A DNA stretch of 64,000 nucleotides from Candidatus Omnitrophota bacterium (GCA_050250375.1 JBFWOS010000001.1:1022361-1086360); one strand, 5' to 3'; positions 2,188 to 31,445 are shown, counted from the first letter of the stretch. Notes: a model not told the origin generated them from the letters alone. Numbers and translations are program-made.

Positions 2188-3561
2188 TCAAATGAATTCT
2201 TTCCGGCACCAGGCCCAATAAGCGCATCGGAATAAAAACAGGCCCGCACCCAGACAAATCACGTTGTTCCAGACCAAAAGCGGCCCGGCAAACGTTGAGG
2301 CATAATAAAATTGAAAGATCAACAAAGACGAAAGGATAATCCCGTTGATGATGACGACCCTTGAGTCCATGGAACAGCTTAACCAGGCCAGCCAAGCCGT
2401 GACCAGAAATGATACATTCCCCGTCAAGAGAAGATATCCCCAGAATTTCGCGGAAAGATAGATGTCCGGCTGGAACACAATATTCGGCAATAACGCGAAG
2501 CACACGCTGAAAATAATCCAGTACGTCAGCCAATGGGCGATCAACACAAGGCCCCTTTCCTTTATATATTGCGGTTTGGCCACGGGCTTGAGCAGGTCAT
2601 GCCCCGCGTAATCCAGTTTTTTATAGTGGCTGCCGATCACCACCAGGACCGGCGTCATGGACAACAGCAGAAAATTGGAATAGGCATTCCTGAAGAAATC
2701 GGCAAAGGCCGGATTGCTTTTGATAAACAGCAGATACACCGGCGTGCCGAGGATGATCAGCATGCCCACAATCTTGATGTCGGTGTGGTCCGCATAATCC
2801 CAGTGAAACGCCCTTGAAAAAACATTCGCCTCCCGGGGATAGGCGGGGACCTCAGTCTGCCCTTCCTTCACATTCAGAAACCGTTTCAGGGGCGTGATGA
2901 ACTGCTCCGACTTGAGCTGATTGATAAAATAATGTTTCGGCGGCCAGGACAGCAAATAATGATATTCAAAATGATGTTCTTTGAGCGCAGCCAGCCTGTT
3001 CAGGAAAAAGACAATGAACACGCCGGATGACAGGCCCGCGATGTACTTTAAATAAGTGATGGTTTCAAACGCGGCGATGATATTCGTGACATTCACCGCC
3101 ATCACCAGGCCCAGCACGTAAGAATAAATGAAGACCCTGCCGATCGACAGGTACCCCAGATAAGCGATCAGTAAAGACGCGAGGAAACAGGTCACAAACA
3201 TGCCCTGCAGACCGTCCGTCGAGATTTCAAACAGCGGCCTGAGGCCGCGCACCCAGGCGACCGCCGCCAGCAGAAAAAACAGATAAACGCAAACCAGGCA
3301 GCACAGGTGCGACCGGCGGTACCCCGGCCATAACGATGCCCGGTGGTTGGCAAACTGCCGTTTGATCATCAGGCCGAAATAAAACGTCAACCAAAGGGTC
3401 GCCACAAACAGCAGGGTTGAAAAATCTTCGGCAAAACCGGAATGGTTTGTCGCAAACAGGAATTTGGATACAGCCGCGTTGAATAAAAGAACTCCGGACA
3501 AAAGCATGAAGTTCGTATTCAGAAAATATAAGCCGAAGATCTGTCTGCACCTCGTCATCAT
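2188..3561 (-). CDS. Polytopic membrane protein, putative permease partner of the adjacent ABC ATPase
   Basis: 457 aa with more than 8 predicted TM helices. There is an ATGA start/stop overlap with the upstream ABC ATPase gene. Confidence 0.55.
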   Translation of the reverse strand: MMTRCRQIFGLYFLNTNFMLLSGVLLFNAAVSKFLFATNHSGFAEDFSTLLFVATLWLTFYFGLMIKRQFANHRASLWPGYRRSHLCCLVCVYLFFLLAAVAWVRGLRPLFEISTDGLQGMFVTCFLASLLIAYLGYLSIGRVFIYSYVLGLVMAVNVTNIIAAFETITYLKYIAGLSSGVFIVFFLNRLAALKEHHFEYHYLLSWPPKHYFINQLKSEQFITPLKRFLNVKEGQTEVPAYPREANVFSRAFHWDYADHTDIKIVGMLIILGTPVYLLFIKSNPAFADFFRNAYSNFLLLSMTPVLVVIGSHYKKLDYAGHDLLKPVAKPQYIKERGLVLIAHWLTYWIIFSVCFALLPNIVFQPDIYLSAKFWGYLLLTGNVSFLVTAWLAWLSCSMDSRVVIINGIILSSLLIFQFYYASTFAGPLLVWNNVICLGAGLFLFRCAYWAWCRKEFI

Positions 3562-4436
3562 CGGTTCAGCTCCAGGAATATTTCTTCCAGGTTCAGGTCT
3601 TCGACGTCGACCCTGGCGTTATAATCTTTTTCCAGTTTGATTTTAATATGTTCACTAAATCCCCTGACCGAGACGATGGCCTCATGGGTTGATGATTCAC
3701 AATGGAGAAACCCTTCCACATTAAACTGGTCCGGTAAATTTTTTTGGGTGACGATTCTCAGGCGTTTGACCTCGTCCTTCAGCTGGTCCAGCTCGCCGAC
3801 GAACGTGATCGCGCCGTCTTTAAGCAGGGCCACCCGGTCCGCCACCCTCTCCACATCCGATGTGATATGTGTTGAAAAGAAAACGGTGCATTCTCTTTCC
3901 GAAACGATTTTCAAAATCGTCCTGAGGAATTGCCTTCTCGCCGCCGGGTCAAGGCTGGCGACCGGCTCATCCAGCACCAGCAGTTCCGGTTCATGCCCGA
4001 GGGCCAGGATGATCGCCACTTTCTGCGCCTGGCCTTCCGACAAAAGTCCGTATTTGTCCTTCGTCTCGATGCCCCATTCCCCGATGAGTTGTTTCACCAG
4101 CTCGCGGTTCCAGTGTTTATAAAAAGAGGCGGTGTAGTCGATCAGCTGACTGACGGTTAACCACGGATAAACCCGGTCGCTTTGAGGGACATACCCGAGT
4201 TTCTCCTTGGTCTCTTCTTTAAATTCCCACGGGTTGTCACCCAGCACGGAAATAGTCCCGGAGGAAACCTTCATCAGGCCCAGGATACTTTTGATCAGGG
4301 TTGTCTTACCGGCACCGTTCGTGCCCAGCAATCCGAAGACCGAACCGCGAGGGATTTCCAGAGACAAATTGTTAAGGACCTGTTTATCCTTGTAACCTTT
4401 CGTGATGCCGTTCAACGCTATAACCGGGTTATCCAT
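3558..4436 (-). CDS. ABC transporter ATP-binding protein
   Basis: Walker A GLLGTNGAGKTT, signature LSEGQAQKV and Walker B LLVLDEP are present. The start is reset to MDNPVIALNG (ATG 4436..4434), which has a strong SD (GGAAGGAGA) 7 nt upstream. The 12-codon N-terminal extension in the ORF track is rejected. Confidence 0.9.
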   Translation of the reverse strand: MDNPVIALNGITKGYKDKQVLNNLSLEIPRGSVFGLLGTNGAGKTTLIKSILGLMKVSSGTISVLGDNPWEFKEETKEKLGYVPQSDRVYPWLTVSQLIDYTASFYKHWNRELVKQLIGEWGIETKDKYGLLSEGQAQKVAIILALGHEPELLVLDEPVASLDPAARRQFLRTILKIVSERECTVFFSTHITSDVERVADRVALLKDGAITFVGELDQLKDEVKRLRIVTQKNLPDQFNVEGFLHCESSTHEAIVSVRGFSEHIKIKLEKDYNARVDVEDLNLEEIFLELNR

Positions 4437-4832
4437 TTTTATTCTCCTTCCATAAACCTTTAAGCAGTTCAATCACTTTTTCCGGTCCCAAGGACAGCTG
4501 ATTTGATTTGGTGATGACTTCCTTTAACAGCGGGACAATATCTTCATTGCGCTTCTGCATATTATTCTTGGGAATGGACGACTTCTGGACACGCATGCCC
4601 TGCCCGCGCACGAATTCGAGCACGCCTTCCTTCTCTAATAAAGAGTAGGCCTTTGAGACCGTCATCGGATTGACTTCCAGCTCTTTGGACACCTGCCGCA
4701 CGGAAGGTAAAAACACACCCTGCTCCAGGCGCCCGGTGGCGATCAGGGTCTTGACCTGGTCAATGACCTGCCGGTAAATCGGCACGCCGGAAGAAGTGGA
4801 TATCTGAAAATAATAATTGGCTTTTTTATTCA
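4429..4832 (-). CDS. GntR-family (YtrA-like) transcriptional regulator
   Basis: N-terminal winged HTH typical of GntR (GVFLPSVRQVSKELEVNPMTVSKAYSLLEKEGVLEFVRGQGMRV). The true start is MNKKANYY at 4832, so the 34-codon N-terminal extension is rejected. It sits 2 nt upstream of the ABC ATPase. Confidence 0.85.
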
Positions 4833-4962: not shown

Positions 4963-6408
4963 TTACTGTTCGGGAGAATCAATCAGGCACATCGGATTGA
5001 TGACGGGGGTTGTTTCTGTTTTATGGACCAGCTGGTCATTTAACCGCAGCCATTCGACCAAGAGCTGCCTGTACTGCGAGTCATGGGAATTCTTGTTAAA
5101 CCGGTTGTTGTCCAGGTCGTTAAAGGCCTGGATGTAATCATTCAGCGTGACTTTTCCGAAAGAATAATTTTCGCTTTCATCTTTTAAGATGGCCTTCGCC
5201 AGATCAATCCTTTCCTCGGCAATCTCGATCAGTTTCTTTTCCCGCTCAATCTGCAGATGTAAATTCATCAGCTGGGTATATAAACGGTGATAGGTATTCA
5301 GGGTGGCCAGTTTCTGTTTGTCGTTGAGGATCACGGACACCGCGTGTTCGGCCTTGGCAACCTGGTCGGGAAACGGCCACTCCAGGGAAATCCCGGCAAA
5401 CAAAATATTGTCTTCGTGTTTAAGCCCGTAATCATCCCCGCTGGACTCATAACCGGCGATGAGATTAATGGACGGAAGGAGTTTGTCCGCGTCCCGGGAG
5501 ACTTCCAGCGAACTTTTGTTTTCCAGTTTCCTTAAAATGTCAAACGTCCGGCTGCTGACCGTGAACTCCTTAAACAATTCCCTGAAATTTCCGTCGATTT
5601 GGGCCATCGGGTTGGTTTCCTGCGGGAGATGCGTGACACCCTCTTCACTGCGGATAATCCGCTGGATGATGTTCAGGCTGCTGTTATATTTTTCTTCCAG
5701 CTCGGCCACCCGTTCTTTCTTGGACAGGACCTGAAGCCTGACCTTGTTCACGTCGATCGGAAGGGCGATCTTCTGTTGTTCCCTTTCTTTCATGCTGTCG
5801 AGCAGTTTCTGGTTCTCGGTATACGAGGACTGCCCGATCTGAAGGTTCTGGTAGTCTTCATACCAGGTGTAATACGCAAAGATGATGGCCGCCAGATAAT
5901 CCTCGTAAGCCTCCACAATCTGGTGGCCGGCCACCTCGACCTCAAGCCCGACAATCTTGTCCAACAGCCGCGTTGAACGGCCGAACGCGTTTTCGGCGAT
6001 GGGCTGGGTGATGGTAAACGTCAATTCGGATGATTTCTCCGCCGAGGAGATCGACGCCCCCGCGTTATACTCAAGCGACATCTCGGTCCCGCTGTAAGGG
6101 AACAGTTTGCTCAATCCAACGGTCGTGTCCGGGGAATTGCGGTCCTGGTTCAGATAGAACTCATGCTGCTGTTTGACCGACAGGACCAGGTCTTTGGCCG
6201 GGAGCCGGATGCTCTTCTGGTACTTCAAAGTGAGTTCATCAATCAGGATCTGTTCAAACTCCGTGTCGCGCTCCGTGGCCAGCTTCAGGAATTCTTCAAA
6301 CGCCAGGGTCTGTTCTTTTTCCTGGGCCAGCGCATGAACACCCGTTTGTCCGCAGATCACCAAACTGAACAAAACTATTTTCCAAATCCTGGCTGATTTT
6401 ATAGTCAT
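4963..6408 (-). CDS. TolC-like outer membrane efflux protein
   Basis: ~480 aa with a signal-peptide-like N-terminus (MTIKSARIWKIVLFSLVICG), two long coiled-coil-rich repeats, and an OEP-family pattern. It lies immediately downstream of the RND permease. Start set at the ATG 6408..6406, 5 nt after the RND stop. Confidence 0.8.
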   Translation of the reverse strand: MTIKSARIWKIVLFSLVICGQTGVHALAQEKEQTLAFEEFLKLATERDTEFEQILIDELTLKYQKSIRLPAKDLVLSVKQQHEFYLNQDRNSPDTTVGLSKLFPYSGTEMSLEYNAGASISSAEKSSELTFTITQPIAENAFGRSTRLLDKIVGLEVEVAGHQIVEAYEDYLAAIIFAYYTWYEDYQNLQIGQSSYTENQKLLDSMKEREQQKIALPIDVNKVRLQVLSKKERVAELEEKYNSSLNIIQRIIRSEEGVTHLPQETNPMAQIDGNFRELFKEFTVSSRTFDILRKLENKSSLEVSRDADKLLPSINLIAGYESSGDDYGLKHEDNILFAGISLEWPFPDQVAKAEHAVSVILNDKQKLATLNTYHRLYTQLMNLHLQIEREKKLIEIAEERIDLAKAILKDESENYSFGKVTLNDYIQAFNDLDNNRFNKNSHDSQYRQLLVEWLRLNDQLVHKTETTPVINPMCLIDSPEQ

Positions 6409-6413
6409 ATCCG

Positions 6414-9400
6414 TTATCCCATCATGGCTTGAATTTTTATCTTTGATTCCTGCAGCAAACTGTAAAAACACGGGACCAGAAAAAGTGTGATCAACGTGCC
6501 GAAGACCAGTCCCCAGGCCAGGGCGAGCATCATTTCCGCCAGCATCGCATCGTATCCGGCCATCCCGTACGCCGTCGGCAAGACCCCGGCCACGGTTGTC
6601 ACCGTCGTTAAGACAACGGCCCGCAGACGGGTTTTCGCGATATCGGCGATCTGCCTGATAACCTCACCTTTGGTTTTTGCCGAGAACTCACTGTCCAGTT
6701 TCGCGAGCATGATAATCGAATCGTTGATGACGACCCCGGCCAGCCCCAGCGCCCCGATGGCCGCGTAAAATCCGAACAAAACTTTCCCGTGCAGCCAGAA
6801 CGCCAGGATGACACCGACCATCCCGAAGGGAATCGACAGCATGATGATCACCGGCCTCATCAATGAATTATAAAGAACGGCCAGGATCGCAAAGATCAGC
6901 AGGATGACCATAATAATCGCCATACGAAACCCGCCCTGCGCCTCACGCGTGTCAAAGACTTCCCCGGTAAAAGAAAGTGTCGTGGACGGCTGTGACTTTG
7001 TGACCTGCGGGAACACCTTCGCCTCCAGTTCATCGGCAATCTCCAGGGGCGTGAACTTTTTGACCGCCTTGATATCGGCGTATACGGCCGTTGTGCGTTT
7101 ACCTTCCCGCCGGGAGATCGAATTCGGCGTCTGCGTATTTTCGACATTGACCAGGTCCCTTAACGGAACAAGATAATTCCGCTGGTTCTCAACCGGGATG
7201 TCCAGGATTGATTCCAGGTCCCTCTTCGACTCATCTTTCACGGTTAACCGGACATCCACATCTTCATCGCCTTTGGGAAATTCATAAAGGACCGAACCCT
7301 CCAGGGCCGAACGGAAGGTCGTTGTGATATCGGCCGGATTGATGTCGAGCCGTTTGACTTTTTCCCGTTTAAAATCAATTTTGTGTTCAGCGACCTTGAT
7401 CGGCTCTTCGATCTCGACGTTCATCAGCTTCTCGTTCGCTTTCATGAGTTCAGAGAGTTTTTGGGCGGCCGAATCCCGCAGGGCGTCATCATTTTCCTGG
7501 ATCAGAACTTCTATGGCGCTTCCGCTGTCCTGCCCCCAGCGGCTTTTCTGGATGACGAGTTTGTTGAGGCCTTCAATGGACTCGATCTGCGGTTTCCACA
7601 CGCCGATCAGCTGGTCGGCGGATTTTTTCCGTTTCTCCTTGGGAACAATCTCGACAATCATGCTGAAACGGTTCTCCTGCACCTCGCCTCCCCGCCGGCT
7701 CCGGGCAATCTCCGTACGGTATCCGACCACTTCCTTTCCGATGTAGGGGATTAACAGGTCTTCAATTTTTTTGGTCAGATTGGCGGTATCAATGCGGTCG
7801 GCCTGTTTATCCGCAAAGCCGGAAATAACAATGTCCCGTGTCTCCTCGTTGGGAAACATCACGAATTTCATCTGGCTGGTCATGATCCATCCGGACGCTA
7901 AAAGGATAAAAATGAAAAAGGCAAAGACAAAATATTTGTAAGCCAGAACTTTGTGCAGCAGCGCCCCGTATTGATCTTCAACATTTTCAAACCAATGGCG
8001 TTTGACCGGCTTTTCTTTGTTTTTATGGCCGTTCATCAGCTTGCCGATCTTGGGCACTTCAAAATGCATGTGTCCCGGTAAAACCAGCAGGGATTCAAAG
8101 AGGCTCGCCCCCAACATCAGAAAAATAATAGGCGGGATATATTTATTGATCTGCCCGTACCGTCCCTGGAAATAAAACAGCGGGATAAACGCGATGCAGG
8201 TCGTAATGATGCTGGCCAATATGGGAAGAAAGACCTGGGTTGTTCCCTCGATGGCGGCCTCACGGGAATTCATCCCCTTCGAACGCATCCGGCCCACATT
8301 TTCCGCCACCACAATCGCGTCATCGACAACGATCCCCATCACGATAATCACGGCGGCCAGGGTCGTATTGTTAATCGTATACCCCATGAGCCAGCCGCTG
8401 ATCAGGGTAAAACAGATGGTAAAGGGAATCCCCATCGCGACCCAGAAGCCGGATCTCTTGTTGAGAAACAAAAATAAGGCGAGCAGGATCAGGAAAAAAC
8501 CCACGGCCCCGTTCATGGAAATGATCGACAGCCGGTTGCGGACGTCAATGGATTCATCGTCCAGCAGCACAATATCAATCGGGACATCTTTGAGATGGTT
8601 TTCCTTATATTCTTCAACCAGCCGGGTAACCGAATCCAGCGCCTGGAGAATCCCGGCGGAACTGTTTTTAACAACATTGAACATGACGCATTCGTGGCCG
8701 TTGACCTTGATGATCTCCTTTTCCATGTCAAAACCCGGGACAATCTCAGCGATCTCGGAAAGCGGAATGGCCTGGCCTTCAAACCCGGCCTGGATAAATA
8801 ACCGGTTCAGTTTTTCCGGCGTATCCAGCTGGGCGTTGATCGTTACCTTGGGTTCATTCTTGATTTCGATATGCCCGGCGGGCTGGCGGGCGTGATTGTT
8901 GGTGACTTCCCGTTTAACCTGGCTGAGCGGGATGGCGTAGCGGATCAATTTCTCGGGATCAACCTTGATCTGGATCTCTTCCTGAAAGTAAGCGGACTTA
9001 TCAACGCTGTTTACTTCTTTCAGGTTTACCAGCTGGTTTTCCAGTGAATTGGCATATTTCTGCAGGAGCTGCCTTTCCTGCGTGCTTAGAAGGTGGGACC
9101 CTGTATAGATGAGCGCGATATCGAGGATCGCTTTTTTGGAAGTCTCAAATACCCGGACGGTGGGGTCATCCCGCACGTCTTCCGGAAGGTCAACGTCGGA
9201 AACGGCATTGCGGATCTCGGTGATCGCTTCGTCTTTTCGGGGAAAATCCTGTTCCAGTTCAACGGTGATGGATGTGCTGCCCTGGCTGGCCGAGCTGATC
9301 ACCCGGTAAACCCCGTCTATTCCCTCAACGGCCTCTTCGATTTCTTTTGTGACGAAATGTTCGACTTCTTCGGCTGTGGCCCCTGGATAATTCGCGGAAA

Positions 9401-9545
9401 TGCGCACACGGTCAAAGGTGACATCCGGCAGTTCTTCCTTTTTGATATTCTGCCAGCTGACGACCCCGCCTATGAGGATGGAAAGGAAAATAAGGTTGGT
9501 CAATAAGTGACGGTCAACAAAATAAGTGATTACGGCTCGTAACAT
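6414..9545 (-). CDS. RND efflux transporter permease (AcrB/HAE1 family)
   Basis: 1043 aa with 12-TM architecture and two large periplasmic loops. The conserved TM4 motif GIVVDDAIVVAENV matches AcrB GLLVDDAIVVVENV. Confidence 0.9.
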   Translation of the reverse strand: MLRAVITYFVDRHLLTNLIFLSILIGGVVSWQNIKKEELPDVTFDRVRISANYPGATAEEVEHFVTKEIEEAVEGIDGVYRVISSASQGSTSITVELEQDFPRKDEAITEIRNAVSDVDLPEDVRDDPTVRVFETSKKAILDIALIYTGSHLLSTQERQLLQKYANSLENQLVNLKEVNSVDKSAYFQEEIQIKVDPEKLIRYAIPLSQVKREVTNNHARQPAGHIEIKNEPKVTINAQLDTPEKLNRLFIQAGFEGQAIPLSEIAEIVPGFDMEKEIIKVNGHECVMFNVVKNSSAGILQALDSVTRLVEEYKENHLKDVPIDIVLLDDESIDVRNRLSIISMNGAVGFFLILLALFLFLNKRSGFWVAMGIPFTICFTLISGWLMGYTINNTTLAAVIIVMGIVVDDAIVVAENVGRMRSKGMNSREAAIEGTTQVFLPILASIITTCIAFIPLFYFQGRYGQINKYIPPIIFLMLGASLFESLLVLPGHMHFEVPKIGKLMNGHKNKEKPVKRHWFENVEDQYGALLHKVLAYKYFVFAFFIFILLASGWIMTSQMKFVMFPNEETRDIVISGFADKQADRIDTANLTKKIEDLLIPYIGKEVVGYRTEIARSRRGGEVQENRFSMIVEIVPKEKRKKSADQLIGVWKPQIESIEGLNKLVIQKSRWGQDSGSAIEVLIQENDDALRDSAAQKLSELMKANEKLMNVEIEEPIKVAEHKIDFKREKVKRLDINPADITTTFRSALEGSVLYEFPKGDEDVDVRLTVKDESKRDLESILDIPVENQRNYLVPLRDLVNVENTQTPNSISRREGKRTTAVYADIKAVKKFTPLEIADELEAKVFPQVTKSQPSTTLSFTGEVFDTREAQGGFRMAIIMVILLIFAILAVLYNSLMRPVIIMLSIPFGMVGVILAFWLHGKVLFGFYAAIGALGLAGVVINDSIIMLAKLDSEFSAKTKGEVIRQIADIAKTRLRAVVLTTVTTVAGVLPTAYGMAGYDAMLAEMMLALAWGLVFGTLITLFLVPCFYSLLQESKIKIQAMMG

Positions 9546-13162: not shown

Positions 13163-13381
13163 AACCTGTTTCCTTATAATTGATTTAATTCCTGAAATAA
13201 ATCGTTTAGAACGCACAATCTATCATAGTTCCAAAACAAAGTCAAGCCCCTGCTGGATGATCCATGTTATTATGTCAAATAAATATAGATGAAAAGCAAT
13301 CGCAAGCTTTACAGGTGAAAATCATTTAATATATGATATACTTAGTTTGTTTAATATTAATAAAAAGATGAGGAGCGACCC

Positions 13382-16300
13382 TTGATCAATAAAATCATCA
13401 AATTCTTTAAAATCTATTGGATCAACCTTCTTTTATCTATTTGCATCATTAGTGTTGTAATTGGCATTGCCGTGTTTACCTGGTTTTGTATCGAAGGATT
13501 TTCCCATATGGAAGGCTTCAGCAAACGACAGGCCGCCGGGCAGATGGCCTTGCTGCTGCCGATGTTCATTATTGTGCATCTCGTTACTTTGCCGATCATG
13601 CTGGGTGCCCAATTCTTTATGCTTCATGGCGGCGGACTGGCTAAAATCCTGGGCGGTTCAGAATCCAGTAAATCCAAATCAAAAGTTCATTGGGATGAAG
13701 TCATCGGCATGGAAATGGCCAAACAGGATTCCTGGGAGATCGTTGAATTTTTAAGGAATAAAAAGAAACTCGCGGTGATCGGCGGGACAAACATGAAAGG
13801 GGCCTTGATGTTCGGCCCTCCGGGATGCGGAAAGACTTATCTGGCCAAGGCCATCGCGACCGAATCCCATTTACCGTTTCTCTCTACTGTCGGCTCAGAA
13901 TTTGTCACCATGCTCCAGGGGATGGGCGCCATGCGTATGAAATCAATGTTTAAAAAAGCCCGTAAACTGGCCAAGGTCGAGGGCGGCTGTATTATTTTTA
14001 TAGACGAAATTGACTCCTTTGCGCGTCCGCGTTCCGAGATTGAAACCGGCGGCGGAGCCACCACCAGTAATAACGCCACCATTAATCAATTTTTGACTGA
14101 GCTGGACGGCATGAAGAAAAAAGATGATAATATTTTTGTCCTGGCTGCCACCAATGTCGATGAATCGAAACTGGATCCGGCCGTTGTTCGTTCCGGACGG
14201 TTCGACCGGAAAATTCATATCGACAAACCCACCACCAGGGAACGCAAGGCCTTATTAAAATTTTATCTGGCAAAAGTTACTTATGATCAGAAAATTAACG
14301 TCGATGAAATCGCCGAACGTCTTCACGGATTTACACCTGCCGATGTTAACAGCCTGATTAAAGAAGCCGGCGCTATCGCTTTACGCAGCAACGCCAACCT
14401 TATAGAAACAAATCATTTTGAAAATGCTATTTCGCGCATGATGACGTCCAAAGAAAAGTCGCGCAGCAGTTCAACAATACAGCCCAAAGGCAAAGTGCGC
14501 TTCGACGATATAATCGGCATTGAAGAAGCAAAACAGCATGCCAAAGAGCTGGTCAATACGCTTAAAGACCGTCACCTGATGGAAAAAATTGGTGATAAAG
14601 CAACCCGCTGTTCCCTTCTTTTAGGACCATCCGGCTCAGGTAAGTCTTATTTGGCCAAGGCCATCGCGACAGAGGCCGATGTTCCGTTTTTAACTGTCAT
14701 GGGCAGTGAATTTATTGACCAGTTTATGAACCAGGGCCCGATAAAGATGCGTGAATTTTTCTCCGAGGCCCGTATGCTCGCTAAAGCTGAAGATGCCTGC
14801 CTGGTTTTTATTGATGAAATTGATGCCTTCGCCCGGAATCGGGAAAAAATGTTCGGTTATATGCAGAACCCTACGCTCGACCAATTTATCAGGGAATTGG
14901 ATGATCTGCGCCACAACAACATTAATATCATCGTTCTGGCGGCGACCAACCTAGCAGAAGAAGACTTAGACCAGGCGATATTAAAAATCGGCCGTTTTGA
15001 TCATAAAATTATCCTTGAATTACCGCGGGCCAAACAAAGAGAAGAAATTCTGCAGTACTTTTTGAAAAAAGAAAAGAAGACCGACGATATCGATTTAAAA
15101 TTATTGGCCAATAAAACACCCTCCTTTTCTCCGGCGGACTTAGAAAGCATGGTCAAAACCGCCAGTTTAAGTGCCTTACGGAATAAACGGGAAATGATCC
15201 ACATGTCGGACTTAAATTCGGCTTTAGTCGAGATTCAGGAAGATGTCAATAAACGCGGCGACATCAGCATGGCCAATACCAAGGTCAACATCCCCTGGAA
15301 TGAGGTCATCGGGATGGATGAAACCAAAAAGAACGCCTGGGAAATCGTTGAACTCTTAAAAGACCGCCGCAAACTTAAAGTGGTCGGCGGTAAGATTATC
15401 AAAGGGCTTCTGATGATTGGCCCTCCGGGTTGCGGTAAAACTTATCTGGCCAAGGCCATCGCGACAGAAGCTGGTTATCCATTTCTCAGCGTCGTCGGCA
15501 GTGAATTTGTGGACAAGTACGTCGGTGAAGGCGCCCGTAAGATCCGCGACCTCTTTGCTGCGGCACGCAGTCTGGCCAAAGCGGAAGGCGGATGCATTGT
15601 CTTTATTGATGAAATCGACGCCTTTATCAAACCGCGCACCAATGAGATGAACGGGAATACGAATTCGGAAAATGCCACGATTAACCAGTTTCTTGCCGAA
15701 CTCGACGGACTTGGACGGGCCGAAGACGGAAACGTCATCATCCTGGCCGCGACGAATATGCCTCCGGAAAGCCTGGACCCGGCGGTCATGCGTTCGGGAC
15801 GATTTGACAGAAAACTGGAAATTGTCAAACCGTCAGCCAAGGACCGTGAAGAACTCCTTAATTTTTATTTAACTAAAGTCGAAACAGACGGCGCGATCGA
15901 TGTAAAACTTTTATCTGAAAAGACAAAATGGTTTTCCGCCGCCGATATTAATAACATGGTCCGCGAGGCCGGAATCTTTGCCTTGCGTGAAAATAGAGAA
16001 AAGTTGTCCATGGATGACCTTAATAAAGGGATGAAACGGGTCATGGATTCGATCGAGAATATGGGAGAAGACAAAATCCTCGGAGACAAGGTAAATGTCA
16101 AATGGGAAGAAGTCATCGGTATGCCTGACGCCAAAGAAGAAGCGTTGGAAATCGTTAAAATGCTGAAAGACCGCAATATTGTTAAAGCCATCGGCGGCAA
16201 GATCGTCAAAGGGGTTGTTCTCTTCGGACCTCCGGGATGCGGAAAAACATATCTCGCCAAAGCCATGGCCACCGAGGCGGGCTTCCCTTTTATCTCTAAA

Positions 16301-17482
16301 GTCGGCAGCGAATTTGTCACGATGTGGGTCGGCGAAGGCGGAAAAAAGATGCGGGATATGTTCAAAGAAGCCCGCGCCTTGGCAAAAACTGAAGGCGGGT
16401 GTATCATCTTCATCGATGAAATAGATGCCTTTGCCAGACCCCGCGGATCCAACCAAAACAGCAGCAGCAACTCGGAAAACGCCACGATCAACCAATTCCT
16501 CACAGAAATGGATGGATTGAAAAACGAAAGCAACAATATCATGATCCTGGCGGCAACCAACGCGCGTGAGAACCAAATCGACCCTGCGGTTATGCGCGCA
16601 GGCCGCATTGAACGCAAAATTTACATCTCCCTGCCGACCCTGGAAGAACGTAAAGAACTGTTCAAGTTCTATTTCAGCCGGGTCAGCATCGCGGACGATG
16701 TAAGCCCGGACCGCTGGGCCCGTATCGCGGTGGGCACTTCTCCGTCGGACATCGACAGCATCGTGCGTGAAGGCGGTCTATTAGCGTTACGCGGCAAACG
16801 AGAATCAATTACCCACAAAGACTTAATGGAAGGTTATGATCGAATCACATTAGGCTCAGTGTCCCGGGAGAAATACAACAAGAAATCAATTATGAAAACA
16901 GCTTATCACGAATCCGGTCATGCAATTCTAACTTACCTTGTTCATCCTTCGAGTGAGGTGATCAAGGCTACGATTAAACCCCGCAAGGGTTCACTGGGCA
17001 TGATTCAAAACCGTCCGATTGAAGAACTCGCGCTGAATTCACCGAACAAAGAACAGTGGCTTTCCGAAATACAAATAATGCTGGCCGGGTACGTCGCCGA
17101 GAAACTCACCTTCGGCACAACCGCCTCCGGAGTTGGCGGCGGGCCGGGCAGTGATTTTCATCGGGCCATGAGCGTGGCCAATTATATGGTCCGCAGCCTT
17201 GGTATGGGGGCTTCCGGGCTGATCGGTGACTTTACCGCCATGGAAGAAGATGCTCTATCGGAAAGGACCAAAGTAATTCTCGAAAACGATGTCCAGGACA
17301 TCCTCCAGAGCTGTTTGAAAAAAACCACCGAAATCCTGACCGAATATAAGGCCGTCCTCGAATATTTTGCGCAGGAATTAATGGAAAAGGGCGATCTGGA
17401 ATATGATGACGTCCAGGACATCTTTAATAAATTTAAACTAAAGCCGGCCGCCGTCCGCCCTTCGACCATTGAGGAAGTTTAA
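13382..17482 (+). CDS. FtsH-like membrane AAA+ metalloprotease with four tandem AAA+ modules and one M41 peptidase domain
   Basis: TTG start with SD GAGGAG 7 nt upstream. Two TM helices at aa ~14-38 and ~55-80 with no periplasmic domain between them. Four FtsH-type units, each with an xxW/F[DE][DE]V/IIGM motif, Walker A, Walker B and SRH:
- aa ~102-370: Walker A GPPGCGKT.
- aa ~372-635: Walker A GPSGSGKS.
- aa ~637-905: Walker A GPPGCGKT.
- aa ~906-1160: Walker A GPPGCGKT.
Walker B is FIDEID in all four. The C-terminal M41 domain has HESGH zinc-binding, a downstream AGYVAEK, and a GSDFHRAMSVANYMV motif aligning to FtsH. Confidence 0.9.
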   Translation: MINKIIKFFKIYWINLLLSICIISVVIGIAVFTWFCIEGFSHMEGFSKRQAAGQMALLLPMFIIVHLVTLPIMLGAQFFMLHGGGLAKILGGSESSKSKSKVHWDEVIGMEMAKQDSWEIVEFLRNKKKLAVIGGTNMKGALMFGPPGCGKTYLAKAIATESHLPFLSTVGSEFVTMLQGMGAMRMKSMFKKARKLAKVEGGCIIFIDEIDSFARPRSEIETGGGATTSNNATINQFLTELDGMKKKDDNIFVLAATNVDESKLDPAVVRSGRFDRKIHIDKPTTRERKALLKFYLAKVTYDQKINVDEIAERLHGFTPADVNSLIKEAGAIALRSNANLIETNHFENAISRMMTSKEKSRSSSTIQPKGKVRFDDIIGIEEAKQHAKELVNTLKDRHLMEKIGDKATRCSLLLGPSGSGKSYLAKAIATEADVPFLTVMGSEFIDQFMNQGPIKMREFFSEARMLAKAEDACLVFIDEIDAFARNREKMFGYMQNPTLDQFIRELDDLRHNNINIIVLAATNLAEEDLDQAILKIGRFDHKIILELPRAKQREEILQYFLKKEKKTDDIDLKLLANKTPSFSPADLESMVKTASLSALRNKREMIHMSDLNSALVEIQEDVNKRGDISMANTKVNIPWNEVIGMDETKKNAWEIVELLKDRRKLKVVGGKIIKGLLMIGPPGCGKTYLAKAIATEAGYPFLSVVGSEFVDKYVGEGARKIRDLFAAARSLAKAEGGCIVFIDEIDAFIKPRTNEMNGNTNSENATINQFLAELDGLGRAEDGNVIILAATNMPPESLDPAVMRSGRFDRKLEIVKPSAKDREELLNFYLTKVETDGAIDVKLLSEKTKWFSAADINNMVREAGIFALRENREKLSMDDLNKGMKRVMDSIENMGEDKILGDKVNVKWEEVIGMPDAKEEALEIVKMLKDRNIVKAIGGKIVKGVVLFGPPGCGKTYLAKAMATEAGFPFISKVGSEFVTMWVGEGGKKMRDMFKEARALAKTEGGCIIFIDEIDAFARPRGSNQNSSSNSENATINQFLTEMDGLKNESNNIMILAATNARENQIDPAVMRAGRIERKIYISLPTLEERKELFKFYFSRVSIADDVSPDRWARIAVGTSPSDIDSIVREGGLLALRGKRESITHKDLMEGYDRITLGSVSREKYNKKSIMKTAYHESGHAILTYLVHPSSEVIKATIKPRKGSLGMIQNRPIEELALNSPNKEQWLSEIQIMLAGYVAEKLTFGTTASGVGGGPGSDFHRAMSVANYMVRSLGMGASGLIGDFTAMEEDALSERTKVILENDVQDILQSCLKKTTEILTEYKAVLEYFAQELMEKGDLEYDDVQDIFNKFKLKPAAVRPSTIEEV

Positions 17483-18561
17483 TGCCCCGGAAAATTCACG
17501 CATTATTCCTCATTGTCAGTCTAGGGAGTGTATTGTATATATCCGGATGCGCGAAAAAAGAAACTGTTGTTGAAGCCCCTACAACACCCGCTCATACCAA
17601 ACTCAGCGAACTCCTCGAAAAGGAATTCAAAATTCACGCCATTACCCGGGCTTTACCAAACACCCTTTGGATTTATATCCCGCTGGAAAAAACATTTTTT
17701 GAAGTTTCTTCCACTGACAAAGGACCGCAAAAGTCGTCCAACGCAACAAAGAGTTTAAACCTGCTTTATCTGGACGGTCAATTTGACGGAAAATACTTTA
17801 ATATAGAGTATGATGTCGGGGAATCAAAGAATTATTCCGATGATAAGGGCATCCAATCCAAGTACTCGGAGGAGTACAGCCGGATCAGCCGCACAATCCC
17901 GACGGCCATCCATACGGCCTATTCGGATATTGAACGCAAGGTCGGCAGCCATGACTACATCGAAAAAATTGCAGGCGACATCGACTTTCAGGATGAGCAC
18001 AAAAACACGACCCATAAGGCCCTGGTTCAATCCAATGTCCTGCAGGAACAAAAGGTTCCTGATTTCTTTGTCGTGGTTATCGCCGATATCGAAAAAGGCA
18101 TCGAATCCCGCTCATTGTTTTATTTACAGGATCTCCGCCGGGCCCACGTTGACCCGAACTTTATGGAAGAGTATGCCAAACGGGTCATCACCGATCAGCC
18201 CATCGGTCATTCGGTCATTATTGGCGATAAAACCGGCCAGTATGTTGACTATCATGATGTGACCTGGAATGAATTTCTGATGAAACAAATCCTAAACCGG
18301 ATCCGATTTCAATATCAGATGAGTTCCCATAAACCTGAATCCGGCGATTTCGATATTCTAAAGGACCTGGCCAATCAGGTCCTTCGGGCATACCCTCACC
18401 GGGATTATCAGGGCGTGAATTTTCTCAACCTTGAAACCAAAAAAGAATCCAGACTAAATGCGGATGCAATTGATGCCTATCAAGATTTTGACAGCAAAGA
18501 TCCAGGACGGATTCGTAATATCAAAGTAAATCTGGACGCCCCGGCCGAAAACGGCATTTAA
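17482..18561 (+). CDS. Lipoprotein of unknown function, translationally coupled to the tetra-AAA FtsH
   Basis: The ATG overlaps the upstream TAA (TAATG). Signal peptide with lipobox ISGC (MPRKIHALFLIVSLGSVLYISGC). 359 aa with no recognisable catalytic motif. Confidence 0.6.
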   Translation: MPRKIHALFLIVSLGSVLYISGCAKKETVVEAPTTPAHTKLSELLEKEFKIHAITRALPNTLWIYIPLEKTFFEVSSTDKGPQKSSNATKSLNLLYLDGQFDGKYFNIEYDVGESKNYSDDKGIQSKYSEEYSRISRTIPTAIHTAYSDIERKVGSHDYIEKIAGDIDFQDEHKNTTHKALVQSNVLQEQKVPDFFVVVIADIEKGIESRSLFYLQDLRRAHVDPNFMEEYAKRVITDQPIGHSVIIGDKTGQYVDYHDVTWNEFLMKQILNRIRFQYQMSSHKPESGDFDILKDLANQVLRAYPHRDYQGVNFLNLETKKESRLNADAIDAYQDFDSKDPGRIRNIKVNLDAPAENGI

Positions 18562-19298: not shown

Positions 19299-20882
19299 TC
19301 AATCTTTTGTTGCCTTTATCATTTCCAGCTGACCAGCGATCTCTTTCGCTTTTTCGGTCTGGCCGCTCTCTTCATATTGCTCGATCAACCGGCTGTAAAC
19401 GTACTCTAAATTTCCTTTATACGAACCTTCAAGGATACCTACTTCCTTAACATTGCGATATTGGGCCAGGGCCTCTTCATATTTCCCCTGGTCGGCCAGG
19501 GCCTTGCCCAGACCGATCAGGGCCTTTGTATTATAGGGTTCATAATTCAGGGTCTGGCGGTAATGGTACTCCGCCTCTTCAAATTTTCCGGCATACCCAT
19601 AACATACCGCCAGGGAATTACGCACCCGGTGATTGCCAGGGTTATGTTCCAGGGACCGCTTAAACATGGCGATCTGGTTGGTCGCGTAGACATTCTGCTG
19701 AAGCAGGGTCAAAAATAAAAACAGGATATACCCGCCGACAAGGATTTGTTTGATCGACGGCTTTAAACTGCCGGGCCGTGAAAGAATGTTTTGAGTCACC
19801 GTCACCAGAAGGACGATCGCACCGATAACCGGCAGGTATAAAAAATGGTCGCTGGTCGAAATCCTTCCGCCGGGCGCGCGGATCGGGATGATCTGGGCGA
19901 CTGTGCCGAAATTAAGCACAATCCAGGATATAAAAAACAACAATGCCGCCGGTATCTTGCGGCGGTTCAGGAAAATCGCGGTAAAGACACCCGCCCACAC
20001 ACACAAAGAAAGCATCAATACCGGGTCCCCGGGGCGGACAAACAAAAGTGTCGTATGGTCATAATAAAAGTCAACCGGAAGCAGGATCTGCCGGGTGAAA
20101 TACAGGCAGGTTTTAAGAAATGTGCCTACCCCCAGCCATACTTCCAGCGGCGTATCCCAGGCGGTGACCCGGGTAATCCCCAGGAGGCGGCGGATGATAA
20201 AATAAAATACCATCAAAGCCATATACGGCCACAACAAACCGTACGACCGGCCTTTGTCTTTGTCCCGCATAAAAAAAAGATACCCGGCCAGGACAAACGG
20301 CAGCATGACCGCTGATTCTTTGGACAAAAGCGCCAGGATAAAACAAACCACCGATATATAATAGAAAGGATTCTTTTTATCCTGTGTTTCAAATTTGAGA
20401 AAACTGTAGAACGAAGACAGGAAAAAGAAGGAACACAGCAGGATGGAACGTCCCGGGATGTTGGACACAGCCTCCCAGTGCACGGGATGAATCACAAAGA
20501 TAAACGCGCTGAAAAAACCGGTTCTTTTATCTTTCATCAGCGACGTCACGATCCAAAAAACAAACAATGCATTACCGATGTGTAGAAATAAATTCGTCAA
20601 ATTGTAAAAAAAAGATTTCAGGGCGAACAGGTGAAATTCCGCCATAAAAGACACTAAAACCAGCGGCCGGTAATAAGATCCTTCCATAAAAAATGATGTC
20701 GTGAAAATCTCGCCGATACGGCTGATGTGTTTGATCCGGGGGTTGTTGACGATGGAGACCAGGTCGTCCATGGTCTTGAACTGGGTGGGCAAAACAACGG
20801 CATACCCGGCCAATCCGGCCAAAGCCAGGCACAGGATTATATTGCGGTTACGACTCAGTATTTTGGATAAGAATGAATTCAT
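19299..20882 (-). CDS. Polytopic membrane protein with C-terminal TPR repeats (TMTC/DUF1736-like)
   Basis: ~400 aa with more than 10 TM helices, followed by TPR-like repeats (AVCYGYAGKFEEAEYHYRQTLNYEPYNTKALIGLGKALADQGKYEEALAQY). Confidence 0.55.
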   Translation of the reverse strand: MNSFLSKILSRNRNIILCLALAGLAGYAVVLPTQFKTMDDLVSIVNNPRIKHISRIGEIFTTSFFMEGSYYRPLVLVSFMAEFHLFALKSFFYNLTNLFLHIGNALFVFWIVTSLMKDKRTGFFSAFIFVIHPVHWEAVSNIPGRSILLCSFFFLSSFYSFLKFETQDKKNPFYYISVVCFILALLSKESAVMLPFVLAGYLFFMRDKDKGRSYGLLWPYMALMVFYFIIRRLLGITRVTAWDTPLEVWLGVGTFLKTCLYFTRQILLPVDFYYDHTTLLFVRPGDPVLMLSLCVWAGVFTAIFLNRRKIPAALLFFISWIVLNFGTVAQIIPIRAPGGRISTSDHFLYLPVIGAIVLLVTVTQNILSRPGSLKPSIKQILVGGYILFLFLTLLQQNVYATNQIAMFKRSLEHNPGNHRVRNSLAVCYGYAGKFEEAEYHYRQTLNYEPYNTKALIGLGKALADQGKYEEALAQYRNVKEVGILEGSYKGNLEYVYSRLIEQYEESGQTEKAKEIAGQLEMIKATKD

Positions 20883-27934: not shown

Positions 27935-28512
27935 TTGTCTTTTTTATGGGTGGACATAAATAATTCCCTGATCCTTCTACGGCTGAAATAATATATAAAA
28001 GCCGAACAGAAAACGAAATCAATCAGCATATAGAAAAATCGTGATATTTTCGGATGCCAGGGATAAACCAGTTTGTATCCCTGCATATCCGGAGGATACA
28101 ACGGGTAGGCAAACTTGTCTAAGATCGTTCCCGCCGGAAAGGTGTTAATGCCGCGCTGGTATTCACTGTAAATAGAGATATTTTCAAAAACATAAAACGG
28201 ATGCCTCCAGTGAATTGTAAGCAGCGAGATACTGAATAACACAATGAGCGTCTGCCGGGCCGTTTCTTTTCGCGCGAACAGTCCGACAGCAATGAAGATC
28301 CCGGCAATCCTTGATCCGACGGAAATGATAAATCGATCATTGATCATCCCGGTGGGCATCTGCTGGAACATAAAAACGTAATAATCATAATTAAGAAACC
28401 CGTAGAGATTATAAATCGATCCGGCGATCAGCAGGGCAGAGAAAACGGCGATCCCCCTGGGTTTTGAATTTATTCCCCGCAGCATTTTTTGTATTTTTTT
28501 CCGCTGCCGCAC
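27931..28512 (-). CDS. Membrane protein of unknown function (paralogous family member B)
   Basis: 4-TM protein whose start overlaps the lnt stop (ATGA). It is homologous to the 33476..33997 product ([11 protein letters not shown] vs YWKHPYEAFVNW; IYYFSRRR vs IIYYFTRPP). Confidence 0.5.
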
Positions 28513-31445
28513 GGGCAGGGGTCGTTGCGTCCGACCTTAGGCCCGTCATTTCGGGCAGGAACCGCCTTGGGAACCTCTTGCGGATGAGGTTGTGAAATCG
28601 GCTGGCGGGGAGCGGCATTGCGGGCAGCATGCCGGATATCTTCCGCGTCGTCATGCACCAGATTCTGAGGCAGGGAACCGAACACACTCTTGATCCGGCG
28701 TCCCGGCGTGATCGGCTGGAGTTTAAAGATCAGTTCGGCGACTTCCTGGTTGACAGACATATGCATGGACTCAAACATAAAAAACCCCTCTTTTTTATAT
28801 TCGATCAGCGGATCGCGCTGCCCGTAAGAGCGCAAACCGATCCCGTCCTTGAGCAGGTCCATCGCGTAAAGGTGGTCTTTCCACTTGGAATCGATGGTGT
28901 TGAGCATCAGCATTCTTTCCAGATAACGCATCTCTTCAGCGCCGAACTCTTCCTCTTTCCTGCTGTACATCTGATTCAGGTCATCCATGATGATCTTGAC
29001 GATTTCTTCCTGCGTTTTTTCCCTGATCTGGTCTTTGTGCCCAATCATATCGTAATAAAAACCGGTCTTTAAATAAGCGTTCAACCCGTCAAAATTCCAT
29101 TCGTCTTCCTTGCCCGGAGTAAACAGATGTTCATTCACCGCCGGGGAAATGACGCTTTGAATAGCGTCAAAAATGAGATATTTGATATCGGAACTTTCCA
29201 GCACCAGGCGGCGCAAATCGTAAATCACTTCACGCTGGCGGTTCATGACATCGTCATATTCCAGCAGGTGTTTACGGATTTCAAAGTTGTGGTTCTCCAC
29301 CCGCTTCTGGGCGTTTTCAAGCGCCTTGTTCAGCCACGGATGTTCCAGCACCTGACCTTCTTCCATCCCGAGCTTTTCCATCACGCTGATAATCCGCTCC
29401 GAGGCAAACAGACGCATCAGATCATCTTCAAGGGACACGTAAAACTTTGACGCGCCCGGGTCGCCCTGACGGCCCTGTCGTCCGCGCAGCTGGTTATCAA
29501 TGCGGCGGGATTCATGCCGTTCGGTCCCCAATACGAATAATCCGCCCTGCTCGATGACCTTTTTCTGCTCCGCCTGACATTGTTCCCGGAACTGATTGAT
29601 AAATTTTTGCGTCATCTCGTTGCGCTCGGCTTCATCCGCCCCGTCTTTAAGTTTCTGACTGACCAGGTTGACGGCCAGATAAGCGGCGTTTCCTCCCAGG
29701 ACAATGTCGGTACCGCGGCCGGCCATGTTCGTCGCGATCGTTACCGCCCCGAATCGTCCGGCCTGGGCGATGATGTTCGCTTCCTGCATGTGAAACTTCG
29801 CGTTGAGGACATTATGCGGGACACCTTTTTGTTTCAAATAGGTCGACAGCAATTCTGATTTTTCAATGGAGATCGTCCCGACCAAAACGGGCTGCCCCCT
29901 CTTGTGGCACTCCGCGATATCGTTAACAACGGCGGTATATTTTTCTTTCTGGGTCTTATAAATGGCATCCGGATGGTTGAGCCGCTGCAGGCGTTTGTTG
30001 GTCGGGATTGCCACACAATCAAGCTTATAGATCTGTTTAAATTCCGTGGCCTCGGTATAGGCTGTACCGGTCATGCCGGATAATTTCTCGTACAGACGGA
30101 AATAGTTCTGGAACGTGATGGTGGACAGGGTCTGTGTTTCCCGTTCGATCTTGATGCCTTCCTTGGCCTCCACCGCCTGGTGCAGACCATCGGACCAGCG
30201 ACGGCCGGGCATCATACGACCGGTAAATTCATCGACGATAATGACCTCGCCTTCCTGGACCACGTAGTCAACATCCTTCTGGAAAAATTCCTTGGCCTTA
30301 AGAGCGGCAAGGATATGGTGCCGGTGCTCAATCGTTTCCATGTCATGCAGATTATCAATGCCAAGCATCTTGGCCGCTTTTTCTTCTCCGGCATCTGTCA
30401 TTGCGATCGACTTATTCTTCTCGTCCGCCATGTAATCATAACCAACGCTTAAATCAATCTCTTTATGTTTGGCATCAATCTCGTCATTTTCCGTGATGCG
30501 GCGTCCTTTTAACGCCTTGCTGATATCAAACGCCTTGTAATATTTGTCGGTCGCCTGTTCAGACGGACCTGAAATGATCAGCGGTGTACGGGCCTCGTCA
30601 ACAAGGATGCTGTCGACTTCGTCCACAATCGCAAAATGATGCGGACGCTGGACCATCTGTTCCTTGAAACTGACCATGTTGTCTCGCAGATAATCAAAAC
30701 CGAATTCATTGTTGGTCCCGTAAGTGATGTCGCAGCCGTACGCCTGCTGGCGCTGGGCCGGAACCAAATCATGCAGGATCACGCCGACGGTCAGGCCTAA
30801 AAACTTAAAAATCGGCTCCATCCACTCCATGTCTCTTTTCGCCAGGTAATCATTCACCGTGACAATGTGAACCCCTTCACCGGTCAAGGCATTGAGATAC
30901 GCCGGCAGGGTGGCGCACAGGGTCTTTCCTTCTCCGGTCGTCATTTCCGAAATGTTTCCTCCGTTAAGGACGATCCCCCCGACCATCTGGACGTCGAAAT
31001 GACGCATTTTCAAAACCCGCCAGGACGTTTCCCGGACCACCGCGAACGCCTCCGGCAATATTTCCTTCAGGGCATCCTGTTTGGTTTTGCGGTATTTTTC
31101 CTCGGCTTCATCAATCTTGTTATTCAAATCCGTCTTCTCGGCATTATCCGTCGAAGTGTTGTATTTTTCCCGCAGGTCATCGTATGCCTTTTTATCCGGT
31201 TCAATGGCCTTGTTATACCGGGCCTTGAATGCCGGGGTGTACGCTTTAAGCTGTTCATCGGTCAGGCTTTTCATTTTTTCTTCAAAAGAATTGATCTGGC
31301 TGACAACCGGAACCATTTTCTTGAGCATCCGGATCGACGGCAAAGGCAGATCCTCCGGGACATGCAGATTAACCTTGGGGGTCTGCCTGTCAATCAGTTT
31401 CTGGGTGGATTTAGCCGCCGCTTTTTGAAAAATAAAATCTAACAT
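28470..31445 (-). CDS. secA: Preprotein translocase ATPase SecA
   Basis: 991 aa with DEAD-like motor motifs and a C-terminal zinc-binding [14 protein letters not shown] tail. Confidence 0.97.

Follow-up and report, generated by a model that had tools for sequence, protein, structure and literature searches.

The 64,000-nucleotide stretch of a Candidatus Omnitrophota bacterium genome analyzed here as a whole (GCA_050250375.1, JBFWOS010000001.1:1022361-1086360; hereafter the window) encodes an FtsH-like membrane protease with four tandem AAA modules and one M41 peptidase domain on a single polypeptide, with a lipoprotein gene directly behind it. An earlier note, made from the sequence alone, had drawn attention to this gene, and each of the elements that it listed was located where it had been placed. 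The constituents of the locus are the following:

13370-13375, plus strand: Shine-Dalgarno sequence GAGGAG, 6 nucleotides 5' of the TTG start (direct sequence reading)
13382..17482, plus strand: four-AAA FtsH-like protease gene, stop codon included (listing of open reading frames; Pfam and NCBIfam)
13418..13621, plus strand: membrane anchor, with transmembrane helix 1 at residues ~13-35, an 18-residue loop and transmembrane helix 2 at residues ~54-80 (hydropathy scan)
13487-13540, plus strand: periplasmic loop, residues 36-53
13682..14491, plus strand: AAA module M1, residues 101-370; Walker A GPPGCGKT at 145, Walker B at 204
14492..15286, plus strand: AAA module M2, residues 371-635; Walker A GPSGSGKS at 415, Walker B at 474
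15287..16093, plus strand: AAA module M3, residues 636-904; Walker A at 680, Walker B at 739
16094..16852, plus strand: AAA module M4, residues 905-1157; Walker A at 949, Walker B at 1008; adjoins the protease domain
16853..17479, plus strand: M41 zinc peptidase domain, residues 1158-1366; H1176-E-S-G-H1180 and D1258
17471-17477, plus strand: internal Shine-Dalgarno sequence GAGGAAG for the lipoprotein gene (direct sequence reading)
17482..18561, plus strand: lipoprotein gene, 359 residues; signal peptide, lipobox YISG-C23; Omnitrophota-restricted family

The protease open reading frame (ORF) runs for 1366 residues from its TTG codon with no interruption over 4.1 kb, and only six in-frame codons separate that start from the preceding stop. 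With the GAGGAG element 6 nucleotides upstream, the description of an intact gene with a good ribosome-binding site and a TTG start is borne out. Pfam searches recovered four AAA domains (PF00004, 480 bits), four AAA_lid_3 domains (PF17862) and one Peptidase_M41 domain (PF01434), while the NCBIfam FtsH model TIGR01241 matched four stretches of the protein, the last of which extends through the protease domain. The earlier note had counted four FtsH-like units, each with the N-terminal signature, Walker A, Walker B and second region of homology (SRH), and had named a domain search as the check on that count; all four emerge from both Pfam and the motifs. The signature W/F-[DNE]-[DE]-[VI]-I-G lies at residues 104, 374, 639 and 908, the Walker B takes the form hhhhDEID throughout, the sensor-1 asparagine is present in each of M1 to M4, and the SRH ends in RSGRFDR in M1 and M3, KIGRFDH in M2 and RAGRIER in M4, the first arginine finger of M2 being a lysine.

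The pore loops are more varied (TMLQG in M1, DQFMN in M2, DKYVG in M3 and TMWVG in M4). Pore loop 1 is canonical in M3 (K-Y-V-G) and M4 (M-W-V-G); M2 (Q-F-M-N) retains the aromatic residue but has lost the glycine, and in M1 (M-L-Q-G) a leucine replaces the aromatic. Across the classes of relatives with two, three, four and six modules (see below), the Walker A lysine, the Walker B acidic pair (DE), the sensor-1 asparagine and the arginine fingers are conserved at each module position, and systematic deviations are confined to M2, with its GPSGSGKS/T Walker A and lysine as first finger. Arginine fingers matter only at the subunit interfaces of an oligomeric ring; hence, their retention suggests that every module takes part in such a ring.

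At the N-terminus, which is lysine-rich, a hydropathy scan of the whole protein found just two hydrophobic segments, at residues ~13-35 and ~54-80, forming a two-helix anchor of the FtsH-family kind with its N-terminus inside. Since the loop between them spans only about 18 residues, there is no room for the folded periplasmic domain of ~70-100 residues found in the FtsH family, and the short loop is common to all relatives; the two-helix anchor with essentially no periplasmic domain noticed earlier is thus upheld. The loop carries the motif (L/M)ExFS(R/K)(K/R)Q, with E43 and F45, which is conserved in at least 85% of the single- and multi-module relatives. At the other end of the protein, PF01434 matches residues 1167-1347 with 112 bits against a cut-off of 29.9 bits, and the M41 domain can be aligned end to end with solved FtsH and YME1 structures, H1176, E1177, H1180 and D1258 falling on their zinc site with D1258 as the third ligand. 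The HExxH motif and the aspartate ligand are invariant across 82 family sequences. On sequence grounds the protease site is therefore intact, and the single HESGH-bearing M41 domain that the earlier note reported is indeed there, at residues 1176-1180.

The stop codon of the protease gene and the start of the lipoprotein gene overlap (TAATG, 17480-17484), and together with the internal Shine-Dalgarno sequence this arrangement indicates that the lipoprotein gene is translationally coupled to the protease gene. From this coupling the earlier note had drawn a dedicated system for membrane proteolysis or extraction. The coupling stands but the dedication does not: the same lipoprotein gene directly follows the gene of a single-module relative in 53 of 59 loci. 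Judged by gene order, the protease-lipoprotein pair is the FtsH-like system of this lineage and not a separate, dedicated one. The lipoprotein would be periplasmic and probably docks on the conserved ExF motif of the loop, in which case it probably takes the place of the absent periplasmic domain, regulating the protease or acting as its adaptor.

Tandem repeats in a metagenome-assembled genome (MAG) are a classic setting for misassembly, and it was necessary to weigh whether the four modules come from a collapsed or expanded repeat, a chimeric contig, an annotation error or a decaying pseudogene. The modules share only 39-54% pairwise identity in protein and 50-60% in DNA, and no long exact repeats able to mislead an assembler occur among the four of them; they are, by these figures, old paralogues, and the frame stays open for 4.1 kb. 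Comparison with a 78%-identical orthologue from another locus (L001) gave non-synonymous differences (pN) of 0.04-0.20 against synonymous differences (pS) of 0.65-0.84, the latter saturated, in every region of the protein (for M1, pN 0.15 and pS 0.73). Identity to this orthologue is highest for M4 (92.5%) and 68-80% for M1 to M3, with M2 the lowest at 68%. The excess of pS over pN in each module indicates that every module is under purifying selection. NCBI holds the identical protein, encoded on a 1.2-Mb contig, under the title 'MAG: AAA family ATPase [Candidatus Omnitrophota bacterium]', and five further four-module proteins with 57-89% identity were found in NCBI, JGI, ENA and Logan assemblies, so that the four-module proteins in the protein database search make up six clusters. 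A four-module protein (P0003) and the six-module protein (P0004) were each recovered on two independently assembled contigs, and the datasets and assemblers behind these relatives are likewise independent. Taken together, the divergence of the modules, the purifying selection and the independent four-module assemblies leave an artefactual origin exceedingly improbable; the chimeric assembly that the earlier note had held up against its own proposal is effectively refuted.

To delineate the family we scanned species-representative genomes for the Walker A word PPGCGKTY, taken from its characteristic GPPGCGKTY, and assigned module classes in the best 80 loci. At least 571 relatives were recovered, nearly all in Omnitrophota MAGs, and the periplasmic domain is absent from the family. 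Single-module proteins of 550-600 residues with the same short-loop anchor account for 59 of the best 80 loci. A hidden Markov model (HMM) built from M1 to M4 and applied to the 120 best database matches counted two modules in 73 of them, three in 40, four in six and six in one; 16 of the 73 two-module matches belong to a separate class with the architecture TM-AAA-M41-AAA-M41 (TM, transmembrane). No five-module form was encountered among these HMM-counted matches or the best 80 scanned loci. The six-module protein also possesses the two-helix anchor once its start is moved upstream.

The genes for proteins with two, three, four and six modules share one syntenic position, with eno-divIC upstream on the opposite strand, the protease gene followed by an unannotated gene for a protein of 300-360 residues in the middle, and purN on the opposite strand beyond. 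In a neighbor-joining tree computed without support values on the C-terminal unit (the last AAA module and M41), all the multi-module proteins form one clade nested among the single-module ones, and module number shifts repeatedly inside that clade. The last module (the M4 type) is orthologous in all family members, whereas the M2 type is restricted to the four- and six-module proteins. The order in the six-module protein, M1-M2-M3-M3-M3-M4, has the M3 type three times and therefore points to growth by internal duplication. By these criteria the four-module gene is no one-off but a member of an Omnitrophota clade with two, three, four and six modules, and its ancestor is reconstructed as an FtsH-like protein with one module, already paired with this lipoprotein, the AAA module having been duplicated within one clade. 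We also considered and rejected a '4+2' hetero-hexamer of the window protein with a two-module paralogue: the genes of the different module classes are orthologues at one syntenic locus, and the 64 kb of the window contain no other FtsH-like gene.

A second search, with residues 371-1366 as query against a representative library of 1.84 billion proteins, placed this clade in a wider setting. Among the best 150 matches, 37 combine two AAA modules with M41, eight combine three with M41, and 21 have four to five AAA modules without M41; four or more AAA modules plus M41 are found solely in the query protein's own cluster. Proteins with three AAA modules and M41 (P0163 and P0309, ~1184 residues, ~37% identity) come from MAGs of Thermoleophilaceae (Actinomycetota). 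Tandem-AAA forms of FtsH thus apparently arose more than once, the Thermoleophilaceae origin being apparently independent. The tandem-AAA proteins without M41 (~30% identity) include P0161 (2124 residues), P0171 (2055 residues) and P0253 (1895 residues), as well as P0282 (2350 residues) with seven Walker A motifs. They are metagenomic proteins with four to five or more classical-clade AAA domains, and, where named, they are annotated as 'SpoVK/Ycf46/Vps4 family'.

The separate TM-AAA-M41-AAA-M41 class of Omnitrophota comprises proteins of ~1010-1027 residues that are encoded at another locus, beside a tetratricopeptide repeat (TPR) protein (for instance, L008 6001-9042 and L085 2622-5663). Two HExxH motifs are present in P0060, P0068, P0074, P0086, P0089 and P0113; only the second is retained in P0076, P0092, P0095 and P0100, in which the first protease site has been lost. 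By their architecture these fusions look like covalent pseudo-heterodimers of FtsH. At L053 two single-module FtsH-like genes stand in tandem (966-2771 and 2805-4496) with a gap of 34 nucleotides, followed by a weak match to the lipoprotein family; such a gene pair may represent the precursor state of the fusions. A two-module member is also found in a 'Candidatus Elulimicrobium sp.' MAG placed under the Patescibacteria group at NCBI (L020, DYOU01000030.1), and a few other loci carry the titles 'uncultured Planctomycetales', Elusimicrobiota or Chloroflexi; these titles probably reflect binning or labelling issues.

For a genuine four-module gene, the quaternary arrangement of the product can be considered. 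The earlier note had envisaged up to four stacked hexameric ATPase rings above a single protease chamber. We regard it as somewhat probable that each module index would form its own hexameric ring, with the rings stacked as in p97 and ClpA. The module-number series favors this, because the four modules of the window protein cannot tile one hexamer, whereas stacking fits any number, and because the protein is, by locus and clade, an orthologue of forms with two, three and six modules. The alternative that these observations address is an in-ring pseudo-oligomer, in which consecutive modules lie side by side in one ring as in dynein, midasin and linked ClpX: two-module chains would trimerize, three-module chains would dimerize and one six-module chain would make up a whole ring, while the four-module protein would form either two rings from three chains with 12 modules or an open spiral, leaving fewer than six M41 domains per ring. 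Two, three and six are divisors of six and a five-module form was not seen, which suits such a scheme, as do the TM-AAA-M41-AAA-M41 fusions of the same phylum, for which the simplest reading is an in-ring pseudo-heterodimer of the m-AAA protease kind. The breaking of the six-fold protease ring that it entails is, however, at odds with the constraint on M41, which is as strong as in single-module relatives (ratio of M41 to AAA divergence of 1.26 in multi-module proteins versus 1.41 and 1.33 in single-module groups); hence, this constraint too favors stacking.

An AlphaFold2 monomer model of residues 95-1166 (predicted local distance difference test score, pLDDT, 77; predicted template-modelling score, pTM, 0.41) was compared with the PDB using Foldseek. 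The 50 best matches were all p97, Cdc48 or NVL chains, and the model superimposed on their D1-D2 chains over ~560 columns with target-normalized template-modelling scores of 0.72-0.77. None of the top Foldseek matches aligned several modules with the motor ring of dynein or midasin; the dynein-associated entries were single-module only (for example, 8j07_11 at rank 38, with 265 residues). Even with a pTM of just 0.41, the model favors a pose in which consecutive modules are related like D1 and D2 of NVL, Rix7 and p97, and it speaks against side-by-side placement in one ring. In the model the inter-module linkers are low-confidence segments of ~20 residues from the lid helix to the next helix. 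Their length resembles that of the p97 D1-D2 linker, given as 22 residues in PMC4730245, and in this respect favors stacking; a linker of ~20 residues is, at the same time, long enough to reach a neighboring subunit in the same ring. On balance, we consider the in-ring arrangement quite improbable.

A further possibility is that only M4 and M41 form an FtsH-like hexamer, with M1 to M3 serving as flexible ATP-dependent arms, spacers, or regulatory or substrate-capturing modules. The much stronger conservation of M4 (92.5% as opposed to 68-80% for M1 to M3), the degenerate pore loops of M1 and M2, the lysine first finger of M2 and the low global confidence of the AlphaFold2 model would all be expected on this account. 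It sits poorly with the family-wide retention in every module of both Walker motifs, sensor 1 and one or more arginine fingers, with the canonical K-Y-V-G pore loop of M3 and with the purifying selection acting on all modules. We therefore consider it unlikely.

Several points likewise weigh against stacked rings. The model is of a monomer and its global confidence is low (pTM 0.41); the D1-D2-like pose, seen in a superposition of ~560 columns, may not hold at all three module junctions, and it may be a learned default of AlphaFold, whose training included p97-type structures. M1 lacks the pore-loop aromatic, and M2 lacks the pore-loop glycine and has a lysine as first finger; accordingly, the upper two rings may not be full translocases. 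The module numbers two, three and six divide six and fit an in-ring arrangement as well, and the benefit of greater unfolding power is pure conjecture. Hence, the four stacked rings of the earlier note are favored by the p97/NVL-like geometry and the module-number series but, with a pTM of 0.41, are still inferred. The complete picture, namely an M41-held hexamer with four stacked rings, substrate threading and a regulatory lipoprotein, is the best explanation that we can offer, and we lean towards it only slightly.

By analogy with FtsH, six chains would assemble through their M41 ring, and four coaxial ATPase rings with 24 ATP sites would separate the protease chamber from the membrane; consecutive rings would be related as D1 and D2 are in p97 and NVL if the model holds. 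The M1 ring, which faces the membrane, would engage the substrates, conceivably proteins in or near the membrane, and these would then be threaded hand-over-hand by way of M2, M3 and M4 to the M41 chamber. An AAA tier is about 35-40 Å high in known structures, and on this basis the cytoplasmic tower would be ~20 nm tall, or ~28 nm in the six-module form. FtsH unfolds proteins only weakly, and for the D1 ring of ClpA it has been proposed that it improves grip and prevents back-slipping; the extra rings could plausibly add grip, resistance to backsliding and unfolding power. Some Omnitrophota proteins that are anchored in the inner membrane run to tens of thousands of residues (bioRxiv 10.1101/2023.11.21.568195; 10.64898/2026.06.07.730766), and a link between tier number and such giant membrane-anchored substrates is a matter of speculation.

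AAA+ unfoldases are, in the textbook account, one-ring or two-ring machines, and for ClpA, ClpB and p97 there is continuing debate over what a second ring contributes, be it grip, processivity or regulation. Should the stacked arrangement be correct, the window protein would take AAA+ machines past two coaxial tiers for the first time, with four active rings (six in its orthologue), a ring number tunable through one, two, three, four and six in the course of evolution, perhaps a role in the extraction and degradation of giant proteins, and a lipoprotein replacing the periplasmic domain; we put this forward tentatively, at somewhat less than an even chance. It would amount to an unprecedented tower of ~20-28 nm under the membrane. 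The clade offers a natural series of orthologues that have one, two, three, four or six near-canonical AAA modules but share anchor, protease and locus; it is well suited to finding out what the number of rings means for unfolding force, processivity and ATP cost, and a multi-tier FtsH would test whether weak unfolding is an architectural limit. More generally, the finding defines a phylum-wide, divergent FtsH-like family that lacks the periplasmic domain, is paired with an uncharacterized lipoprotein and is hidden behind the public name 'AAA family ATPase'.

The remaining features of the window that we annotated are:

13308..13337, plus strand: promoter-like TTTACA-18-TATGAT upstream of the protease gene (consensus scan, 10/12 matches)
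28470-31445: secA, core gene
38632-40236: murJ, core gene
42841-44430: comEC, core gene
44814-47294: leuS, core gene
52714-54603: mnmG, core gene

The consensus scan of the region returned 16 such promoter-like sites against 8.7 expected by chance, and the site at 13308..13337 constitutes weak evidence for a promoter. Nearly all the other ORFs of at least 300 residues in the window are on the minus strand, in agreement with the lone long plus-strand operon of the earlier note. As a whole, the window is an ordinary piece of core chromosome. An origin of the protease gene from a mobile element or defense system found no support, the neighbors being core genes (eno, divIC, purN, secA, leuS, mnmG, murJ), and a match to the anti-phage IteA model lies far under its cut-off and reflects generic AAA similarity. 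Just past purN, at 19299-20882 on the minus strand, the window encodes a polytopic membrane protein of 527 residues with C-terminal TPR repeats; a TPR-bearing protein occupies the same position in the two orthologous loci that were checked (L001 and L005/L006), one of them being PMT_2-like. An efflux pair, with genes for an outer-membrane efflux protein and an AcrB-type RND (resistance-nodulation-division) transporter, lies at 4963-9545 on the minus strand.

The earlier note had not recognized the architecture as a described one, and we too found no description of a multi-AAA FtsH in the open-access papers and bioRxiv preprints that were searched; the Omnitrophota genome papers (bioRxiv 10.1101/2023.11.21.568195; 10.64898/2026.06.07.730766) are silent on it. 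As far as can be told, such sequences have already been deposited under generic names while the protein type has apparently been neither recognized nor studied. Its closest known counterparts are the canonical FtsH, i-AAA and m-AAA proteases (MEROPS M41; TIGR01241), with which it shares the N-terminal anchor, classical-clade AAA modules with SRH, and a C-terminal M41 domain with HExxH and aspartate ligands; FtsH (TIGR01241) is the best curated-model match by a wide margin. Canonical FtsH has one AAA module, as do the single-module relatives, whereas the window protein has four; it has a periplasmic domain where the window protein has an 18-residue loop; and it lacks the obligatory-looking lipoprotein gene partner. 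Its GPPGTGKT and MFVG motifs correspond to GPPGCGKT and TMWVGE in M4, as in p97/Cdc48 D2, and the score of M4 is 155 bits with p97 D2 and similar with the AAA domain of FtsH. M4 together with M41 reaches 375 bits with TIGR01241 and a single-module orthologue 407 bits, against an equivalog cut-off of 600 bits, and the 1155 bits of the whole protein are attained just by summing four modules. A single unit thus scores under the cut-off, which accounts for the NCBI name 'AAA family ATPase'; by these scores the family is FtsH-like but divergent.

Tandem AAA modules in each chain are also the hallmark of the type II AAA+ proteins (p97/Cdc48/VAT, NVL/Rix7, Afg2/SPATA5 and Pex1/Pex6), whose D1-D2 geometry the low-confidence AlphaFold2 model appears to resemble, and the double-ring AAA+ proteases (ClpAP, ClpCP and archaeal Cdc48-20S) share the concept of stacked rings feeding a protease. 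In all of these the number of rings is exactly two, the N-domains are soluble and the protease, where there is one, is separate, in contrast to the window protein with its four modules (six in the orthologue), a membrane anchor leading directly into M1, and a covalently attached M41 domain. The dynein heavy chain, midasin/Rea1 and RNF213 likewise carry four to six AAA modules in one polypeptide, and the module count of the six-module orthologue would suit a one-chain ring of the dynein/midasin type. However, those proteins belong to other AAA+ clades and have highly diverged, partly inactive modules that form one ring, whereas the modules of the window protein are near-canonical with all catalytic motifs kept, and they are four in number where dynein and midasin close one ring with six concatenated AAA modules. 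Finally, the Ycf2-FtsHi chloroplast import motor builds a heteromeric ring of one tier from separate chains whose proteases are inactivated; the window protein is set apart from it by its tandem modules and its active-looking M41 domain.

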